Positions 6,078 through 58,775 of a DNA stretch of 64,000 nucleotides are shown in pieces. The DNA lies in the NCBI GenBank assembly GCA_965249325.1, contig CBDFLP010000020.1, positions 65,428 to 129,427 of the forward strand, given 5' to 3'. The position numbers were made by a program, and so were the translations under genes. The notes below the pieces were generated by a model. It was not told where the DNA came from. It saw only the letters and a list, made by a program, of their open reading frames with translations, and ran no database searches. Numbering within the stretch: position 1 is the first letter of the stretch; the number at the start of each line of letters is the position of its first letter. The stretch is from Dehalococcoidia bacterium (GTDB taxonomy: Bacteria; Chloroflexota; Dehalococcoidia; Lucifugimonadales; Australimonadaceae).

Positions 6078-6229
6078 CCACCGCCCCCTCTGCAGGGGAG
6101 AGTTGGATGATCCGGTCATAACAACGACACTTGCCAGTTGTCTAATCGCCTACTTCCTCTTACCCTGTCCTGAACACCCCGGCTCCCGGCTCGGACCCCC
6201 TCGGGCCGCTAGCCCAATCCAGAGGAGAA

Positions 6230-6259
6230 ATGTCTCACAATGTCTCTAAATGTCTCACC
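6230..6259 (+). repeat. Three tandem 10-bp direct repeats, ATGTCTC(A/T)(C/A)(A/C)
   Basis: ATGTCTCACA ATGTCTCTAA ATGTCTCACC, read directly from the sequence. Confidence 0.8.
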
Positions 6260-6337
6260 TGGACGAGAAATCGTCCCCTCCCAACGCCGGACTGCAATCG
6301 ATAGCTGGATTCCTGCCCCCTCCCGAGTAGAGACCCC

Positions 6338-7678
6338 GGAAGTGGTGTAACAGAAGGTCTTGGATAAAGAGAGACCACCGCGTCATCCTCACCAATGAGC
6401 AAATCGGTGAAGGAGGTGGCGACGATGGTCAAGCAGAGGATGGACCTTCTGGAGCTCGTGTGCAATCAGGCAGAGGACGCAGACCTGGACTTCTTGAGGG
6501 AGGCGATGGGCGTCCTGGTGCAGGCGATCATGGAGGCTGAGGTGGCCGTGCAGATCGGAGCGGAGCACGGCGAGCGCCCACCCGGCCGGCTGACCCAGCG
6601 CAACGGCTACCGGCCTCGCCCCTGGGACACACGGGTGGGCACGCTGGAGCTCCAGGTCCCCCGGGTGCGCGAGGGCAGTTACTTTCCGACGCTCCTCGAG
6701 CCGCGTCGGCGGAGCGAGCGAGCACTGCTCGCCGTCGTGCAGCAGGCTTATGTGGAGGGCGTCTCCACGCGGAAGGTAGACGCACTCGTGAAGTCGCTGG
6801 GCTGCGAGGGGATCTCCAAGAGCCAGGTCTCGTGTATCTGTCAGGAACTGGACCAGGTGGTGGAGTCGTTTCTGGGTCGACCGCTGGACGGAGGCCCGTA
6901 TCCCTACCTCTGGCTGGACGCCCTCACGCAGAAGGTGCGGGAGGAGGGACGGACTGTGAACGTGAGCGTGGTGGTGGCCACGCGGTGTACACGGAAGGCA
7001 AGCGTGAGATTCTTGGAATGGACGTGGGGACGAGTGAGGACGGCGCTTTCTGGTTGGCCTTCCTGCGCTCACTGGTGGCCCGTGGGCTGAGTGGCGTGCA
7101 ACTCGTCACCTCCGATGCCCACCAAGGGCTGAAGGACGCCATCGCCACCGTCTTCGGCGAGGCCTGCTGGCAGCGGTGTAGGACCCATTTCATGACCAAC
7201 CTGCTGAGCAAAGTGCCGAAGCGAGCGCAACCCTGGGTGGCGACGATGATACGCACCATCTACCAACAGCCCTCGCCGGAAGAGGTCCACGCCCAGCACC
7301 AGCGCGTGGTCGCGCAGCTCGAGGAGCGCTTCCCCGAGGCGGCAGGCCGCTTGGAGGAGGCAGGGGCGGACATCTTGGCCTTCACCGCCTTCCCCGTGGC
7401 CCACTGGAAGCAGGTGTGGTCGAACACCCGCAGGAACGGCTGAACAAGGAGATCAGGCGCCGCACGGACGTGGTGGGCATCTTCCCGAATCGGGCCGCCG
7501 TCCAGCGCCTCATCGGCGCGGTGTTGGCCGAGCAGCACGACGAGTGGCAGGTCGGCCGGCGCTATCTCGCCGCGCCTGTCTTGGACGGGGGGACCGCAGA
7601 CCGCATCGAGGACCCGCTGTTGCTGCCCGCAGGGGCGGCTTGATTAGACCCCGAGGATGACGCTCCTACACCACTTGA
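6338..7678 (+). mobile_element. IS256-family insertion sequence, decayed
   Basis: About 1.34 kb. Terminal inverted match AAGTGGTGTA (6340-6349) / TACACCACTT (7667-7676), plus a subterminal inverted match GCGTCATCCTC (6380-6390) / GAGGATGACGC (7653-7663). It encloses a mutator-type transposase. Confidence 0.8.
6395..7643 (+). pseudogene. IS256/mutator-type transposase split over three frames by two 1-nt frameshifts
   Basis: Three pieces read continuously as an IS256-type transposase only after frame changes near 6980 and 7425: ...VSVVVAT | AVYTEGKREILGMDVGTSEDGAFWLAFLRSL...DAHQGLKDAI...AHWKQVWS | [22 protein letters not shown]. Confidence 0.8.
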
Positions 7679-7699
7679 CGGGACGTGACCCCCTCCCGC

Positions 7700-7972
7700 T
7701 CCGGCATCCTGCTCCAAGCCCCCTCCCGTGCTCTATAGCTCGCCGCCGCCTATAGAGGAAGACAAGGAATGACCGAATCGTGTTTTTCACGCTTAACACG
7801 CATTCTTAATCGCGGGAAGCAGGCCGTGGCCTGCTGGAAGCCCCTCTTTAAGAAGATGAGGGTCCCCCTTTCAGCGTCATAAGGCCTTTCGTAACAAGTA
7901 AAAATCCTCATCGAGAAGCTGATTTGCCACCGAAAATCTCACCCGAAAGGGAGACCCTCCCATCTCTCTAAC
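7700..7972 (+). repeat. Structured intergenic element, copy 1 (left part disrupted by the IS256)
   Basis: Collinear with 54861-55180. Shared blocks include CCAAGCCCC..CTCTATA..TATAGAG, CGTGTTTT(T)CAC, AAGCAGGCCGTGGCCTGCT, CCCCTTTCAGCG, GAAGCTGATTTGCCACCGAA and ACCCGAAAGGGAGACCCTC. Confidence 0.8.
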
Positions 7973-8150: not shown

Positions 8151-9431
8151 ATGCTCAGCATCAAAGAGAACGAGGAGCTCACGCAGGTCAGCGCGGGCAC
8201 GCCGATGGGCGAGCTCATGCGGCGGTACTGGCATCCCATCGCCGCCGTCCCGGAGCTTAGCGAACGCCCCACCAAGTCCGTTCGGCTCCTAGGCGAGGAC
8301 CTCGTCCTCTACCGTGACAAGTCCGGCACGTACGGCCTCATCGACCGGTTCTGCCCCCACCGCCGCGTCGACCTCTCCTACGGTATCCCGGAGGAGCACG
8401 GCCTTCGCTGCATGTATCACGGCTGGATGATGGACGAGACCGGTCAGTGCATCGAGCAGCCATTCGAGGAGACCGTCCACCCCGACGGACGCTTCAAGGA
8501 GAAGGTCAAGATTGCGGGCTACCCTGTCGAGGCGTGCGGAGGCCTTATCTTCGCCTACCTCGGCCCGTCCCCTGCGCCGCTGCTGCCCCGCTGGGAGTGG
8601 CTGGTGGAAGAGCACGCCTTCCGGCAGGTGAACTTCCTGGAGCTGCCCTGCAACTGGCTGCAATGCCAGGAGAACTCCCTCGACCCGACGCACCTCGAAT
8701 GGCTCCACAACTACTGGGGGAGATACCAGCGCGAGCTAGCCGGCGACACGGACTCCACCGAGCGGCCTCATCTCCGGCACCAGAAGATCGGGTTCGACGT
8801 CTTCGACTACGGCATCATCAAGCGCCGCGTCTTCAGCGGTTACACCGAGGAAGACGGCGACTGGGCTGTGGGCCATCCGGTGCTCTTCCCCAACATCCTC
8901 TCGAACCCCAGCCAGTTCCGTGTGCCCATCGACGACACCCACACGCTCCACGTGGACTACGTCTCACGCAAGCTCAGCGCGGACATGCCCGCCCCGCCGC
9001 CCGAGGAGATCGAGGTGTACCACCCGCCTTTGGTCGGGGACGACGGGCGGCACATCGTCAACTACACCTTCGGGCAGGACTACATGGCCTGGGTCAGCCA
9101 AGGACCGACGGCGCGGCGCGACCGCGAGAAGTTGGGAGAGTCGGACAAGGGAATCATCCTCTTCCGGAAGCAGCTCAAGGAGCAGATGGCCATCGTGCAG
9201 GACGGCGGCGACCCGATGAACGTGCTCCGTGATCCCACCACGAACGTGTGCATAGAGCTGCCTAACGAGGCCAAGGCAAGGGCCATGGGGATGCGCTCCG
9301 GACGAGGCGCCGGCGCACCCGGGCAGAACGAAGTGCCCGCGTGGATGAACCCCGCGCCGTGGGCGGGATTCGGCATGAAGTATTACCTCGACCGCGTCAA
9401 TGAGGAGAGCGGCCTGACCCCTGCCACCTAG
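8151..9431 (+). CDS. Rieske [2Fe-2S] non-heme-iron oxygenase, alpha-subunit type
   Basis: Rieske motif CPHRRVDL...CMYHGW and mononuclear-iron motif DPTHLEWLH. AGGAGG lies 5 nt before the ATG at 8151. It is a paralog of 24896-26188. Confidence 0.85.
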   Translation: MLSIKENEELTQVSAGTPMGELMRRYWHPIAAVPELSERPTKSVRLLGEDLVLYRDKSGTYGLIDRFCPHRRVDLSYGIPEEHGLRCMYHGWMMDETGQCIEQPFEETVHPDGRFKEKVKIAGYPVEACGGLIFAYLGPSPAPLLPRWEWLVEEHAFRQVNFLELPCNWLQCQENSLDPTHLEWLHNYWGRYQRELAGDTDSTERPHLRHQKIGFDVFDYGIIKRRVFSGYTEEDGDWAVGHPVLFPNILSNPSQFRVPIDDTHTLHVDYVSRKLSADMPAPPPEEIEVYHPPLVGDDGRHIVNYTFGQDYMAWVSQGPTARRDREKLGESDKGIILFRKQLKEQMAIVQDGGDPMNVLRDPTTNVCIELPNEAKARAMGMRSGRGAGAPGQNEVPAWMNPAPWAGFGMKYYLDRVNEESGLTPAT

Positions 9432-29313: not shown

Positions 29314-30312
29314 CTAGACCCACTCGGCGAATCCCATGGCGCAGCCGTTTCCTGCCTCTGTCCGGTAGCAGGGAACGTAGTCCACCATGTCCATCGTGAG
29401 GCCGCCGTTCGACATCGCGCCCGCGAGCGCGATCCAGTTCTTGATCTCAGAGGTGCCGACGCGGAAGCGCGCGTCGGGGTAGTCCGTGAGCTTCGCGACA
29501 TCGTCGTGCTTCAAGCCCTCGATGATCCTCGCGTCCAGGTCCTCTTCGATGACCGTGTGGCTCAGGCCGCCCGAGGCGAAGATGGCGACGCGCTTGTCCG
29601 TGTCCCACTCCTCGATCGCCTTGCGGAGGGTCTGGCCGAACCTGTAGCAGCGTGCCGCTTTGGGCGCGTTCGGTGGGTAGTAGGTGTTGACCAGCACCGG
29701 CACGTTCGGCGTCACCACGTTGTTCATCAGCCGCCGGTAGACGTAGTAGAAGGCGTGGCCGATGGCCCCCTCGCCGTCGCGGCCCGGCGGGAGCTTGCTC
29801 GACCGGGCGACGTCGAACTCGTTCTCGATGAACGTCTCGATGAGGTACTCGCCGAGCGCCGCGTCGGTCGGATGGGTCACCCGCGCGGCAGGCCGCCTTG
29901 CAAACGCCGGGTCGCTCAGGTCGGCGCGGGCTCCTCCGGGGTTGGGCGCGTCGTCCACGCCGCCGCCGTAGTAGATGGACAGCGCGGGCATGTTCTCATC
30001 GCTGAACGACTCTTTCTGATCGTCGCCGAGGATGATGCACACGTCGGGAGCTATGTCGGCGACCGTCTGCTCCAGGTGCGTGATGGCGGTCTGACACGCA
30101 TCCCAGCGGGTCTTGAACTTCTCTTCGGTGCACTCCTTCTCGAAGTGGTCGCCCGCCCGGAGCTCCGCGAGCTCTCCGAAGGAGTAGGTCTTGCCCTCGA
30201 ACCAGTGGACTGGCTGAGAGCGGCCCCGGTCTCCATAGGTGCGCCATGTTTCAGGCGGCATTTCCAACTGCGGCGCATGAGAGGACGCCATTCCAAGAAC
30301 GATTTGTGCCAT
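29314..30312 (-). CDS. Class III extradiol ring-cleavage dioxygenase, LigB family
   Basis: MASSHAPQ, ASGGLSH and GTSEIKNWI motifs, with GGAGG before the ATG at 30312. Confidence 0.8.
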   Translation of the reverse strand: MAQIVLGMASSHAPQLEMPPETWRTYGDRGRSQPVHWFEGKTYSFGELAELRAGDHFEKECTEEKFKTRWDACQTAITHLEQTVADIAPDVCIILGDDQKESFSDENMPALSIYYGGGVDDAPNPGGARADLSDPAFARRPAARVTHPTDAALGEYLIETFIENEFDVARSSKLPPGRDGEGAIGHAFYYVYRRLMNNVVTPNVPVLVNTYYPPNAPKAARCYRFGQTLRKAIEEWDTDKRVAIFASGGLSHTVIEEDLDARIIEGLKHDDVAKLTDYPDARFRVGTSEIKNWIALAGAMSNGGLTMDMVDYVPCYRTEAGNGCAMGFAEWV

Positions 30313-30382: not shown

Positions 30383-30727
30383 GGACCCTCTCTCTAACCC
30401 TTCCTCGGGCTTGGGTTCAAGAAGCCGAAAATGAGGAGCAAAGCAGCTTCTTGGTGAGGGTTTTTACTCGTAAGGGTCTGAAGTCTGTGTCGCTGAAAGG
30501 GGTACTTTCTGTTTCTTGATCGCGGGAAGCAGGCCGTGGCCTGCTAAACAGCCCCGATTAAGAAACAGAATTAAATGTGAAAACACGATTAAGTCATTGG
30601 CTCTCTCTATGAGATGTCGGCGAGTTATAGGGCGCGGGAGAGGGCTTGGGGCGGTATGTCGGAGTGGGGCCATCCCATCCAGGGTACCGTAGGGGGGTGG
30701 CTGGGGTAAGGGGCAAGTGTCGCGGTC
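30383..30727 (-). repeat. Structured intergenic element, copy 2 (reverse orientation, core flipped relative to flanks)
   Basis: Its reverse complement is collinear with 54861-55180 (GACCGCGACACTTGCCCCTTACCCCAGCC...GGTACCCTGGATGGGATGGC...CATAGAGAGAG...CGTGTTTTCAC...CCCCTTTCAGCGACAC...CAAGAAGCTG). The exception is the central 32-40 bp, which reads in the opposite sense. Confidence 0.85.
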
Positions 30728-41093: not shown

Positions 41094-41470
41094 TGCTTCC
41101 TCCCTCCCTCGGTGGGCGCTTGCACACTCACGAGTTCCCACGTCAGGTATCCAGACGGAGCGCGGCTATGTGGCTATGCCGCGTCCACGGGGACTCATTT
41201 CAGCCCTTCTCCAACGGTCTCGAACTCCTGCAAGGCGGAGTCCAGTTCGTCCGCTCCGCCGGAGTCCAGGCGCGCCTATCAGGTGGTCCAGCGCAGGGCC
41301 GATAGTATCCGCGCCTCCCCTGTCGTTCGAGTGCGGGCAACTGGCGGGGGCGCCGGCTATCCCGGCAAGGAGGGCCGCCTGCGACATTCGCCCCTTACTC
41401 CAATGCCCCTGCCTCCTCTACCATGTTTGCTCCAGGCCGCTGGAGAGGCGTCGGGCCTGCTCGCGAGTAA

Positions 41471-41590
41471 ATTGCGCAGAATTGCGCGCCGTTGCGCACT
41501 TTTGCTGCCCTCCACTCGTAAGCCTGCGCATTTTACGAGTGATTGACAGCGCAATTTCAGGCCAATTCGGCCCCAAACGCGCGCAACTCC
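41471..41590 (+). promoter_or_regulatory. Array of (A/G)TTGCGC motifs upstream of lysA
   Basis: ATTGCGC at 41471 and 41481 and GTTGCGC at 41491 have exact 10-bp spacing. Inverted GCGCAA copies lie at about 41549 and 41581. Confidence 0.45.
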
Positions 41591-41659
41591 GCCCGCGCCG
41601 TTGTGCCCTCCGAGACCCCGGCGATAGACTGAATCTCCCATCCACGTTAGGAGCAGCAC

Positions 41660-44074: not shown

Positions 44075-44694
44075 ATGGCCACAGGGGCCCAGAAGACTCT
44101 GCTAACAGCCGGGGAGTTGCCTGCCCTTTCGTCCCGCCTCTCGTCTGAGGGGAAGCGCGCTGAGCTTGTTGAAGGAGAGCTTATCGTCATGGTGCCTGCG
44201 GACGGGAGACATGGCCGCATCGCCAACACGATTGCTTATTTCCTTACGAGTTTCAGCCTCAGCGGCCACGGCGGAACGGTCTTCGCCGCTGAGACGGGCT
44301 TCCTGCTGCGGCGCGACCCCGATACGGTTCGAGCGCCCGACGTGGCGTTCATCAGCAGCGATCGGCTTGGACCGGACGACGCGCCGCCGGGATACCTAGA
44401 GATGCCCCCGGACCTCGCGGTGGAGGTGGTGTCCCCCAATGACTCCGCCGCCTCTGTCCAAAGCAAGGTCGAGGACTGGCTAGGCGCTGGGACGCGGCTC
44501 GTTTGGGTTGTGTACCCCGACACGCAGTCGGTGGCCGTCTACCGTTCCCTGCATGAGGCCGAGGTGCTCTCGGGGCCGGATGCTCTGGATGGGGGGCCGT
44601 GCTTTCCGACTTCGCCGTGCCGGTGCGCGACCTGTTCCGCAGCAAGGGCAGCCTCGCTCCTAGCCTCCGTTGGAACCCCAGGGCACGACCATGA
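44075..44694 (+). pseudogene. Uma2-family (DUF820) endonuclease, frameshifted at a G-run near 44591-44596
   Basis: ELVEGELIVM...PDVAF...PDLAVEVVSPND core. After ...ALDGG the family-typical end VLSDFAVPVRDLFRS... is in the next frame, with its stop at 44692-44694. Confidence 0.65.
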
Positions 44695-45280
44695 CGCGAG
44701 GCCAAGTCTGACGCCAGCGGTCGGCTTTCTCCTGGTACCGCCAGGGCAGGTCGAGCCGATAGTTGGGCCGGACGACCATCGCAAAGACATCGTCGAGCCC
44801 GAATGGGGCGTACACGTCGTAGTCTCCATCGGGAGCCCGGCGGAGTCCGAGGGCCGAACACCGGGTCAAGAAACTGTCGATGCCCTCCCGCGTGCTGTGC
44901 AACGGATCGTGGGGGAGCCCGAACTTCTCGGGGTACCAGAGGTGGACGCGGGCCTGATTGCGGACCTGTACGTCGACATCCAAGTCCGCGAAGGCTGCTG
45001 CGCAACGTTGGATGACCCGGTCCTCCGCCTCCCAGCTGAGGTCATCGAGGTCGCAGTAGAGGATGTCGTAGTCAGTGATGCCGTGGGTTGGCGGGAACCC
45101 GCTCTCGTGGTTCCAGATGGCCTGGCAGAGGCATCCGGCGGCGAGGTAGCAGTCCGGCAGCGCCAACTCCGCCAGACGGTCCACCAGAGTCCGGGTGGTC
45201 TCATTCCCGAGAACGATATCGAGGAACCGCGCGCGGAGGTCCGGCTGTACGTGAGAGGTCGTCATTGCTACAAGTCTCAT
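44660..45280 (-). CDS. Nucleotidyltransferase-family protein
   Basis: About 206 aa. CYLAAGCLCQAIWN...DYDILYCD pattern of the small NTase family. The long N-terminal ORF-track extension is read-through. Confidence 0.55.
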   Translation of the reverse strand: MRLVAMTTSHVQPDLRARFLDIVLGNETTRTLVDRLAELALPDCYLAAGCLCQAIWNHESGFPPTHGITDYDILYCDLDDLSWEAEDRVIQRCAAAFADLDVDVQVRNQARVHLWYPEKFGLPHDPLHSTREGIDSFLTRCSALGLRRAPDGDYDVYAPFGLDDVFAMVVRPNYRLDLPWRYQEKADRWRQTWPRVMVVPWGSNGG

Positions 45281-45327
45281 GGTACGCCGCCGAGGGGGCC
45301 GGAGTAAGGGGCGGACGTCCGCTGCGC

Positions 45328-54782: not shown

Positions 54783-54843
54783 GTCATCCCCCCTTCCGTC
54801 ATGCCCGCCCCTTCCATCATGCCCCGCGAAGGCGGGAATCCAG
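54783..54843. repeat. Three adjacent REP-like units ending in a canonical hairpin copy
   Basis: GTCATCCCCCCTTCC GTCATGCCCGCCCCTTCC ATCATGCCCCGCGAAGGCGGGAATCC. Confidence 0.65.
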
Positions 54844-54860: not shown

Positions 54861-55180
54861 GACCACGACATCTGCCCCTTACCCCAGCCCTCCCGCCTGC
54901 GGTACCCTGGATGAGATGGCTCCGTTCCAGCCCCTCGCCCCAAGCCCCCCCCCGCGCGCTCTATAACGCGCCGCCGTCCCATAGAGAGAGTCAATGCTCG
55001 AATTCGTGTTTTCACGTTTAATTCGCACTCTTGATCGCAGGAAGCAGGCCGTGGCCTGCTAAGCAGCCCCGATCAAGAAGGCGAAAGTACCCCCTCCAGC
55101 GACACAAGCGCTAACCCTAAAAGCCCCATCAAGAAGCTGATTTGCTACCGAATCTCAACCCGAAAGGGAGAGACCCTCAG
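54861..55180 (+). repeat. Structured intergenic element, copy 3 (most complete)
   Basis: Collinear with copy 1 (7700-7972) and with the reverse complement of copy 2 (30383-30727). See findings. Confidence 0.85.
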
Positions 55181-55250
55181 ACCCTTTCCCCTCCTCCCCC
55201 GCCTGCGAGACCTTGCATAGCTCCCCAACGCCGGAGATTCGGGGGCGAGG

Positions 55251-55275
55251 TTCCTGCCTGCGCTGGGCATGACGG
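55251..55275. repeat. REP-like hairpin repeat (inverted orientation)
   Basis: TTCCTGCCTGCGCTGGGCATGACGG is the reverse complement of CCGTCATGCCCAGCGCAGGCAGGAA. Confidence 0.55.
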
Positions 55276-55384
55276 AAGGGGTTATGCAAAGGACTCTGAC
55301 AGGAGTAGGCCCGAGAGGCTGGGCCGGGGGCTGTGGCGCGTAGAGCCGACGCAGGAAAGCCGGGGGCAAACGGGCCTGGGGGGT

Positions 55385-55414
55385 TTGACATACCGTTGGA
55401 GGTCTCTCTATACT
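55385..55414 (+). promoter_or_regulatory. Strong sigma-70-type promoter of the 23S rRNA unit
   Basis: TTGACA, an 18-nt spacer, then TATACT, about 230 nt upstream of the mature 23S 5' end. Confidence 0.6.
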
Positions 55415-55643: not shown

Positions 55644-58634
<2,991 letters not shown>

Positions 58635-58700
58635 ACCTTTCCGCTCCTCTGCTCGCTCGATTTCCCTTGATAACGCGCAAATCGTTCGGTTCTCCTATAT

Positions 58701-58775
58701 TGCGGGGTGGAGCAGTGGCAGCTCGTCGGGCTCATAACCCGAAGGTCCCAGGTTCGAGTCCTGGCCCCGCTACCA
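58701..58775 (+). tRNA. Initiator tRNA-Met (anticodon CAT)
   Basis: 75-nt cloverleaf folded by hand. Three G:C pairs close the anticodon stem (TCGGG CTCATAA CCCGA), A11:U24 is present, position 1 is unpaired with 72, and CCA is encoded. Confidence 0.85.

Follow-up and report, generated by a model that had tools for sequence, protein, structure and literature searches.

A 64,000-nt stretch of a Dehalococcoidia bacterium genome (contig CBDFLP010000020.1, positions 65,428 to 129,427 of the forward strand; referred to as the window in the rest of the text), with a G+C content of 64%, carries three copies of an intergenic repeat of about 300 nt, located at positions 7693-7960 of the plus strand (copy 1), 30408-30727 of the minus strand (copy 2) and 54861-55190 of the plus strand (copy 3). 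A sequence-only reading had proposed three collinear copies without a conserved reading frame, each presenting the same end to the downstream unit. All three were present at the places given: alignment of the three copies with MAFFT showed that they are mutually collinear, and pairwise blastn comparisons within the window yielded 70-76% identity over 230-300 nt (E = 5e-23 to 3e-46) and revealed no further close copy. No reading frame is conserved among the copies, and the same end indeed faces a Rieske oxygenase gene (ATG at 8151), a gene coding for a LigB homologue (ATG at 30312, minus strand) and the promoter at 55385-55414 that precedes the 23S rRNA gene. Going beyond that reading, we conclude with high confidence that the ends of the repeat correspond to the sequences flanking a gene for an AAA_25 ATPase in a larger cassette, and that the copies in the window are gene-less miniatures of this cassette.

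Copy 3 is a complete miniature supported by both the alignment and nhmmer, with an approximate right end. The blocks listed by the sequence-only reading can each be read in the copies, namely GAC..GACAYYTGCCCCTTACCCCAGCC, GGTACCCTGGATG, GCCCCAAGCCC, CTCTATA..TATAGAG, the AT-rich CGTGTTTTCAC.TTTAATTC, a nested palindrome, CCCCYTYCAGCGACAC, GAAGCTGNTTTGC and ACCCGAAAGGG. Given the 64% G+C of the window, the AT-rich block GTGTTTTCAC.TTTAATTC is conspicuous. From left to right on the plus strand, copy 3 comprises a left module (54867-54908) made of GACATCTGCCCC, TTACCC (54879-54884), an 18-nt spacer and TACCCT (54903-54908), with putative promoter activity; a small hairpin, CTCTAT..N16..ATAGAG (54959-54986), which was read directly and is weaker in copy 2; the AT-rich block GTGTTTTCACGTTTAATTC (55006-55024), almost invariant in the family; and, directly 3′ of it, a three-tier hairpin (55022-55085) found both as an inverted repeat and in the RNAalifold consensus, with a basal stem TTCGC/GCGAA, a middle stem CTTGATCG/CGATCAAG and a tip AGCAGGCCGTGGCCTGCT (55043-55060). 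Further downstream, a third box, CCCATCAAGAAG plus CTGATTTGCT (55125-55146), repeats the box of the 3′ arm of the hairpin and is kept in all close copies. Near the right end, the small hairpin ACCCGAAAGGG (55158-55168) is shared with copy 1 and with loci L003, L002 and L010 of related genomes and is absent from copy 2, in agreement with the attribution of a GNRA-type hairpin to copies 1 and 3 only. The orthologue of copy 3, L003, is 88% identical over the element compared to 93-98% in the flanks.

The repeat belongs to a dispersed family. A strict pattern combining the AT-rich block and the palindrome tip had 12 matches in 185,579 species genomes, all of them in three Dehalococcoidia metagenome-assembled genomes (MAGs), parts of which are 93-98% identical to the window. 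A second pattern built on the 3′ half found eight more places in the same three MAGs, and a looser pattern recovered one partial copy from JGI metagenomes. With a profile, we counted 23 close copies in the window and the three MAGs (about 19 distinct loci), at least 20 of which lie outside the window. Common to all is a core that extends over about 150 nt, from GTGTTTTCAC to GATTTRC; in most, the upstream part is shared too. Diverged relatives occur in further genomes upstream of leuS or rpsT (LeuRS 87% identical, LexA about 80%); among the matches listed, genome scans based on LeuRS and LexA returned only more distant genomes. Since diverged elements are recognisable in distant relatives, the family is old in the lineage. 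Upstream of rpsT in L108 (1480-1780), two diverged cores stand in tandem, each with ..GGAACAAGGCCGTGGCCTGCTCGATA.., a TTACGAGTG or CACGAGTGA motif and repeated ATGAAGAAC boxes. At gathering score, Rfam recognised only the large-subunit rRNA and tRNA-Met across the window; when the threshold was relaxed to E ≤ 10 for the surroundings of copy 3, a 9-bit chance match was all that overlapped the element, in agreement with the sequence-only reading, which had recognised no Rfam family. A literature search on the conserved sequence strings and on Chloroflexi repeat elements found nothing specific.

The full cassette is about 1.7-1.9 kb long and consists of the left module, a gene coding for an AAA_25 ATPase of about 460-530 aa, and a 3′ module corresponding to the right half of the repeat; it is multi-copy in this Chloroflexota lineage, and in our searches the cassette family was found only in uncultured Chloroflexota. 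Two loci from different MAGs, L002 and L018, have the left module ahead of a 464-aa open reading frame (ORF), and their core begins no more than 10 nt past the stop codon. The same layout recurs in different contexts around AAA_25 paralogues that are 47-87% identical (L002/L018, L186/L188, L187, L189 and L190). Where the paralogue shares 47-80% identity with the L002 protein, a GACAY..CCCC..TTnnnn-N18-TAnnnT module stands before the start codon, and past the stop codon lie an AT-rich stretch, a hairpin in which boxes surround ..GCAGGCCGTGGCC.., a TTACTCGTAA motif and another hairpin made of boxes. As the module of L189 and L190 lies only 6 nt before the start codon, their transcripts are probably leaderless. 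In L187 (5537-6865), the cassette is directly followed by a gene coding for a NurA-family nuclease, an arrangement seen in no other cassette that may be a coincidence.

Pfam analyses assigned the ATPase to AAA_25, and PHROGs gave weak DnaB-like and primase-helicase matches. Foldseek searches with an AlphaFold model (predicted local distance difference test score of 77) matched only the cores of KaiC, RecA and RadA. An alignment of 60 homologues revealed invariant residues C19, C24, C26, H34, C35, H38, C60 and C65 ahead of the Walker A motif, as well as a conserved C-terminal helical domain that ends in GAWxWSLP and looks like a helix-turn-helix. We counted at least 186 proteins in this family and several paralogues in each genome; its named members are annotated as Chloroflexota AAA ATPase. 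A reading of the N-terminus as a zinc-finger primase (CHC2) was rejected: Pfam returned only a weak, sub-cut-off match to DUF6788, and Foldseek saw only the RecA/KaiC core. Equally rejected were a component of a defence system, for which there were only weak P-loop matches to mad8, and a phage or plasmid origin, with no relatives in IMG/VR and only P-loop matches of 17-20% coverage in PLSDB.

Comparison of the miniatures with seven cassettes by blastn revealed only two matching blocks, one of 25-60 nt at the left and one of 110-200 nt at the right. L010, which retains the first ~45 and the last ~25 codons of the gene, is an intermediate form, an internal deletion of an L002-type cassette. No AAA_25 gene was found in the window by tblastn; its copies are therefore non-autonomous miniatures. 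Miniatures located at unrelated loci share their internal junction or sequence within each subfamily (copy 2, copy 3 and L011; L005, L012 and L001; L014, L016, L019 and L015), suggesting that they multiplied as miniatures rather than decayed separately in place. The cores of L005 and of the cassette L018 share 96% identity at loci that are unrelated. We thus hold with high confidence that the miniatures derive from the cassette by loss of the gene and retention of the left end and the 3′ module. Non-autonomous derivatives of a coding repeat are of a known kind; the parent cassette, devoid of any recognisable transposase, is unusual.

The left end has the form GACAYYTGCCCC-TTACCC-N17/18-TAYNCT or, more generally, GACAYYTGCCCCTTACCC-N17/18-TAYNCT. 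The hexamers and their 17- to 18-nt spacing are fixed and the sequence of the spacer is variable in 16 of the 23 close copies, as well as in diverged relatives and five cassettes; TTACCC, TTTCGC and TTGCGC are the variants of the −35-like hexamer. In full-length cassettes, the AAA_25 gene starts directly after the module; its start codon is 6-15 nt from the −10 hexamer in several subfamilies. Two hexamers 16-18 nt apart, separated by a variable spacer and placed before a gene, are the layout of a promoter, and their match to the consensus is weak; we infer that the module is the promoter of the cassette. We rejected the possibility that it serves a small protein gene of the miniatures: the ATG that many copies have 6-15 nt after the −10 opens ORFs of 14-100 aa that vary in length and frame, only 6 of 21 reaching the same stop in the hairpin. 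The native lexA promoter (L009, 3531-3600; L106, L107 and L108, about 2420-2490) has the form GTGACAC-N7-TTGACA-N17/18-TAnCCT, is followed by a GAAC-N4-GTTC box and is conserved across genera. Its upstream half closely resembles the left end of the element (GTGACACTTGCCCCTTACCC), a likeness that may reflect a shared regulator site or a shared promoter class. In the window, a lone promoter of the type seen at the left end, at about 45320-45258 of the minus strand (GGACGTCCGCCCC-TTACTC-N17-TACCAT, with an ATG 13 nt further on) precedes a gene of about 200 codons whose product, by eye, resembles a nucleotidyltransferase-family protein; the 410-aa plus-strand ORF at 44075-45307 that overlaps this gene may be spurious.

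In the right half, the AT-rich block is followed by the three-tier hairpin of about 64 nt with the tip AGCAGGCCGTGGCCTGCT, and then by further copies of the arm box ATCAAGAAG. An AT-rich stretch precedes the boxes in all subfamilies, including the diverged cassettes. Covariation is seen in the basal stem (TTCTGT/ACAGAA, TTCGC/GCGAA, TTCG/CGAA), and the middle stem CTTGATCG/CGATCAAG exists in GG/CC and AA/TT versions; the tip is invariant in 21 of the 23 close copies. In a gap-free alignment of 23 hairpins, 83.7% of the cells were paired compared to 23-45% when the partner was slid, and double-change cells numbered 24 compared to 10.7 ± 2.4 in shuffles. Between the orthologues L005 and L025, two compensating changes turn CTTGATCG/CGATCAAG into CTTGGTC./CGACCAAG. 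Compensatory changes thus uphold the central hairpin, one of those put forward by the sequence-only reading; for the small CTCTAT hairpin of copy 3, which RNAalifold did not predict, no covariation was established. RNAalifold predicted no pairing outside the hairpins: about 80 nt of the core are conserved as sequence only, and the core of copy 3 folds only 1.9 standard deviations better than its shuffles (z = −1.9). Of the earlier proposal of a mobile or duplicated regulatory or noncoding RNA module rather than debris, the dispersed family of 23 close copies stands and the noncoding RNA part is unsupported.

Downstream of the hairpin come CCCCYTYCAGCGACAC, TTACGAGTAAAAA and the third box CCCATCAAGAAG, to which copy 2 and its allele L007 add a fourth, inverted box that creates a second hairpin. 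Each element has three to six boxes, whose sequence is the same within one element and differs between lineages (ATCAAGAAG, TTTAAGAAG, GACCAAGG, CCAAGGATGCC and CAACAACTT); different box sequences coexist in one genome and even within this window. The two central bases of the palindrome tip are AC in some diverged elements and GT in others (GGCCACGGCC compared to GGCCGTGGCC; L028, L029, L106 and L107 compared to L108, L189, L190 and the window family). That the tip centre varies as the asymmetric loops keep their sides suggests recurrent mini-inversions of the loop in the family. A terminator was rejected since neither strand has a hairpin with a T-run, and the conserved blocks were, by eye, poor matches to the consensus sequences of sigma-54 promoters, DnaA boxes, CRP/FNR-like sites and LexA boxes.

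We determined the orientation of the element relative to its neighbours after collapsing orthologous loci, calling genes by codon-position G+C and checking the neighbours with Pfam. The next downstream gene lay on the strand of the element at all 25 distinct scorable loci (18 miniature loci, six cassette loci and one diverged rpsT locus), an outcome with a chance of 0.5^25, or about 3e-8, under random orientation. At least eight of these loci are tandem intergenic regions and are informative alone (0.5^8 = 0.004). Upstream genes occur in either orientation, and no copy at the 25 loci lies between convergent genes. We therefore have high confidence that, in this sample, the element always points at the next gene, as the sequence-only reading had noted for the three copies in the window. 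The downstream genes are functionally unrelated: they include those for 23S rRNA, leuS, sucC, lexA, etfB, LigB- and Rieske-type oxygenases, an ornithine cyclodeaminase homologue, an aldo-keto reductase, ABC transporters, an amidohydrolase, an inositol monophosphatase homologue, a STAS protein, lysA and an IS30 transposase. We rejected the idea that replication direction dictates the orientation, as it does for KOPS or IS200-type elements: the strand of the copies at 7.7, 30.5 and 55 kb switches with that of the local genes.

A further point that the sequence-only reading had not made is that the downstream genes keep promoters of their own, located between the element and the start codon. The native 23S rRNA promoter, TTGACA-18-TATACT (55385-55414, plus strand; 11 of 12 matches in a promoter scan), is outside the element, 195 nt past copy 3, and precedes the 23S rRNA gene at 55644-58634. 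The leuS, lexA and LigB genes have a TAnACT or TAGCCT −10 located 30-45 nt before the start codon, which is conserved in relatives lacking the element at that place. At L193, for instance, the element is absent upstream of an 88%-identical LigB gene and the TAGACT −10 is kept. A LigB relative of 98% identity carries the element, the one of 88% identity has different flanks, and an exact-protein look-up of LigB gave no match. The distance from the element to the start codon ranges from about 40 to 500 nt, and no intrinsic terminator (hairpin with a T-run) is predicted between the window copies and their genes. As every copy points at the next gene, the element probably provides unrelated genes with a further promoter upstream and with a structured leader. 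No 16S rRNA gene occurs in the 55 kb before the 23S rRNA gene, and tRNA-Met (CAT) comes 66 nt after it (55644-58775 in all). With no 5S rRNA gene in the window either, the rRNA genes are unlinked.

Copy 2, a complete miniature upstream of the LigB-led genes supported by the alignment and by nhmmer and profile matches, differs from all others in its hairpin. On the minus strand, it consists of a promoter-like left module (30681-30721; TTACCC at 30709-30704 and TACCCT at 30686-30681), a hairpin with perfect 16-nt arms (30507-30570) and a second box hairpin, CAAGAAGCTG..N16..CGGCTTCTTG (30418-30453, read directly); this hairpin of boxes 3 and 4 also occurs in L007 and in diverged relatives. The inner part of the main hairpin is inverted relative to every other copy: it scores 71 bits on the strand opposite to the element, compared to 18-36 bits for all other copies, and equals the L005 hairpin reversed at 63 of 64 positions (98%). 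L007 and L192, the orthologous alleles at this locus, have the usual orientation. The 3′ arm is identical in all three alleles and the 5′ arms differ, that of copy 2 being the exact complement of its 3′ arm, so that 16-nt perfect inverted repeats enclose a 32-nt segment oriented opposite to L007 and L192. One of 24 hairpins is flipped in this way. Template switching in a quasi-palindrome, or recombination between inverted repeats, is expected to yield such a pattern, one arm being made complementary and the segment between the arms inverted. We infer that the flip arose by one of these two routes, which would explain the copy 2 variant only and not the element; the 5′ arm of the hairpin is a mutational hot spot. 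The flipped 32 nt correspond to the GC-rich palindrome tip plus loops and contain no promoter-like hexamers, and no recombinase gene adjoins copy 2, for which reasons we do not read the flip as an invertible promoter switch.

Copy 1 is the right-hand part of an element split by an insertion sequence (IS). It begins at 7693 because the right end of an IS256-family element (6326-7692, plus strand; 97% identical to positions 3455-4823 of L012) abuts there, making it an interrupted copy rather than a shorter one. The transposase frame of the IS256-like element is broken by frameshift into fragments at 6395-7090 and 7416-7643, and the insertion may carry an 8-bp duplication, CCCTCCCG. Copy 1 best matches the 3′ flank of the cassette L186 (79% over 161 nt), and its TTTAAG box variant CTTAATCG/CTCTTTAAG is that of the cassettes L186 and L188. 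L008 has the same kind of IS between its left module and its core; by analogy, 6138-6325 (plus strand; ACGACACTTGCC ... TCTTACCCTG) could tentatively be the left-hand part of copy 1, in a diverged form. A probable fourth, strongly diverged relative lies at 41380-41600 of the plus strand, with GACATTCGCCCC-TTACTC-N18-TACCAT followed by a stretch with many TTGCGCA/TGCGCAA boxes and an inverted pair CACTCGTAA..TTACGAGTG. Similarity to the other copies is detectable at its promoter-like end only (E = 0.005). It is co-directional with a downstream diaminopimelate-decarboxylase-like gene (41660), which has its own TAGACT −10. Around copy 3, an inverted pair of units resembling repetitive extragenic palindromes (REP) brackets the element at 54785-54838 and 55251-55286 (..CCTTCCGTCATGCCC.. 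and ..GGGCATGACGGAAGG..); 59 nt (55228-55287) are missing from L003, so that the right-hand unit may have been inserted recently. Small palindromes of a similar kind (CTCCCCGTCTGCGGGGAG, ACCCGAAAGGG) flank many copies in the MAGs.

Taken together, these observations lead us to favour, with a probability of about 0.55, the reading that the repeats are gene-less miniatures of the cassette whose boxes and AT-rich block are served in trans by the ATPase and from which transcription reads through into the next gene. The co-occurrence of a P-loop ATPase, a DNA-binding-like C-terminus, lineage-specific 3′ boxes and an AT-rich stretch is what makes us take the right half for a binding or loading site. 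The boxes would be bound by the cassette's own protein, and the AT-rich block beside them would be where the ATPase opens or loads onto DNA, much as an initiator gene stands beside an iteron origin; the miniatures would be served in trans by cassette-encoded ATPases. Transcription started at the left-end promoter would leave through the right end, since nothing terminator-like is present there. Such an unterminated exit would make insertions antisense to the next gene costly, which would explain why only the downstream neighbour is constrained. Only insertions pointing the same way as the next gene would survive, and the survivors would supply it with an additional promoter further upstream and with a structured leader. 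Promoter activity, binding of the protein to the boxes, an origin-like role, read-through and mobility in trans are each predicted from sequence, and our confidence in the mechanism by itself is moderate to low. A bolder version, which we consider doubtful, is that of a new selfish element spreading in Chloroflexota chromosomes without a known transposase or recombinase. Its ATPase would act on the box-flanked hairpin by loading, unwinding or strand exchange at the extruded palindrome, and its miniatures, mobilised in trans, would insert before genes in a single orientation and thereby rewire the promoters of core genes, 23S rRNA, leuS, lexA and sucC among them.

Several findings weigh against the favoured reading. 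The left module of copy 3 matches the sigma-70 hexamers at only 3 of 6 plus 3 of 6 positions and was missed by a consensus scan, and the same promoter type stands alone before ordinary genes (lexA and the gene at about 45320), so that it may be a widespread class of host promoter and not an end peculiar to the element. Among the hairpin mismatches on the element strand, A.C outnumbers G.U, which does not favour an RNA of the top strand; either strand may be the acting one. One cassette, L191, is devoid of the 3′ core module. Searches that included Pfam and Foldseek identified no homologues of the N- and C-terminal domains of the ATPase, and the cassette encodes neither a recombinase nor a transposase, its only gene being that of the ATPase. 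We found no terminal inverted repeats: an inverted-repeat search returned only the internal hairpin and the REP-like pairs around copy 3, and the left and right blocks are not complementary. Finally, no empty site at close distance was found, as the element-free loci L026, L027, L031 and L193 are too different in their flanks, and the ends of the element are approximate.

The strict co-orientation with downstream transcription, the compensatory changes in the hairpin, including the L005/L025 double change, and the lack of a conserved ORF would also suit a functional RNA, in which the promoter drives a structured leader or small RNA of about 250-300 nt, equivalent to the 3′ untranslated region of the cassette, acting in cis (on stability, processing or attenuation through box pairing) or in trans. 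In L002, L009 and L188, box 3 changes along with the hairpin arms, as alternative pairing predicts. We nevertheless consider a functional RNA unlikely: structure is supported for the hairpin alone, with about 80 nt of the core conserved without pairs and a fold z-score of only −1.9; the tip is invariant in sequence beyond the need of structure; the A.C excess runs counter to it; and both the absence of an Rfam match and the widely varying distance to start codons, with independent promoters in between, speak against such an RNA. A duplicated regulatory region of a host regulon, in which the boxes are operators of a chromosomal transcription factor, would account for repeated 8- to 9-nt boxes, inverted and direct, upstream of many genes and for the resemblance of the left module to the lexA promoter. 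This we regard as very improbable, given that about 300 nt are conserved beyond the boxes, that the downstream genes share no function, that several box sequences occur in one genome and in this window, and that the elements lie upstream of the native promoters rather than within them and are absent at the same genes in related genomes.

Two other explanations concern the origin of the copies. The copies are small, noncoding and multi-copy in many contexts, as are miniature inverted-repeat transposable elements (MITEs), and an ordinary MITE could be moved by a DDE transposase encoded elsewhere, with the AAA_25 gene as cargo; copy 1, L002, L008, L010 and L012 each have an IS256- or IS30-like element no more than 2 kb away, and transposases of the IS110 family and of IS30 type are found near L187 and L188, respectively. 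Yet no terminal inverted repeats join the left and right ends, and the IS elements interrupt or flank the copies at differing positions and share no ends with them. The left end is common to the ATPase promoter in paralogues down to 47% identity, which fits co-evolution of the gene with its flanks and not capture of a cargo. A longer partner sharing both ends does exist but encodes the AAA_25 ATPase, not a transposase, and we find an ordinary MITE improbable. The same low standing goes to in-place remnants, that is, decayed cassettes that never moved and whose ends are simply the promoter and the 3′ hairpin (terminator or stabiliser) of the gene. Such remnants would resemble L010, with its clear internal deletion, and the many miniatures in which remnants of the start region (MSTPR.., MPSPR..) follow the −10. 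Independent deletions, however, are not expected to produce internal junctions shared between different loci, nor the 96% identity of the L005 and L018 cores at unrelated loci.

Among known repeats, the closest in general form are MITEs such as Correia/NEMIS of Neisseria and mosaic repeats such as the pneumococcal BOX, the enterobacterial ERIC and bcr1 of Bacillus cereus. Like these, the present element is short, ORF-less, multi-copy, intergenic and modular, has a long hairpin and is derived from or paired with a longer coding element; some of the known repeats also carry promoters or affect neighbouring transcripts, and some are biased in orientation to genes. It differs in the absence of detected terminal inverted repeats, in having a RecA-fold ATPase as its partner and in an orientation rule that is absolute in our sample. 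REP/REPIN-RAYT systems do not correspond to it: the unit is about 300 nt long with a non-palindromic 3′ half, and no RAYT (IS200-like) gene was seen in the retrieved loci. Nor do integron attC sites, as the arms TCTTGATCG and CGATCAAGA lack GTTRRRY and the copies are dispersed, not arrayed.

For the cassette itself, iteron plasmids and staphylococcal pathogenicity islands offer a parallel, with a Rep helicase and an origin immediately 3′ of rep. The likeness lies in a P-loop, helicase-like protein with a separate DNA-binding end, downstream symmetric boxes by an AT-rich stretch and a box sequence that varies with the protein lineage. Full cassettes display this layout, with their AT-rich stretch 5′ of the boxes and the module next to the ATPase stop codon; in the window, the gene is absent. 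Unlike those modules, the present one is a chromosomal cassette of about 1.8 kb without integrase, phage or plasmid context, whose boxes lie on either side of a GC-rich palindrome and whose AT-rich block spans just some 20 nt. In Streptomyces, TraB is a single DNA translocase whose C-terminal winged helix binds 8-bp clt repeats at the 3′ end of its own gene, and clt-like clusters occur elsewhere in the chromosome. Here too an ATPase gene is followed by a cluster of 8- to 9-bp repeats that is a candidate recognition site. TraB, however, is FtsK/SpoIIIE-like and membrane-anchored, whereas the cassette protein is an AAA_25 ATPase with a Cys/His N-terminus, no such match and no plasmid context. 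Putative mobile promoters, defined by a closely similar upstream region before non-homologous genes within or between related genomes (PMC3575422), resemble the element in the reuse of an upstream region and differ from it in that the present unit is about 300 nt long, has a coding parent and lies upstream of native promoters instead of replacing them.

The repeats and the hypervariable arm of the hairpin are likely sites of assembly breaks and of spurious ORF annotation in Chloroflexota MAGs. If the favoured reading is correct, an uncultured Dehalococcoidia lineage carries cassettes and miniatures that place a promoter and a structured segment before housekeeping and catabolic genes, directed at the gene in every case. 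The spread of promoters by a family of repeats could then be tested on a concrete example, which would raise the question of how a RecA-fold ATPase and a box-flanked palindrome are copied around the chromosome.

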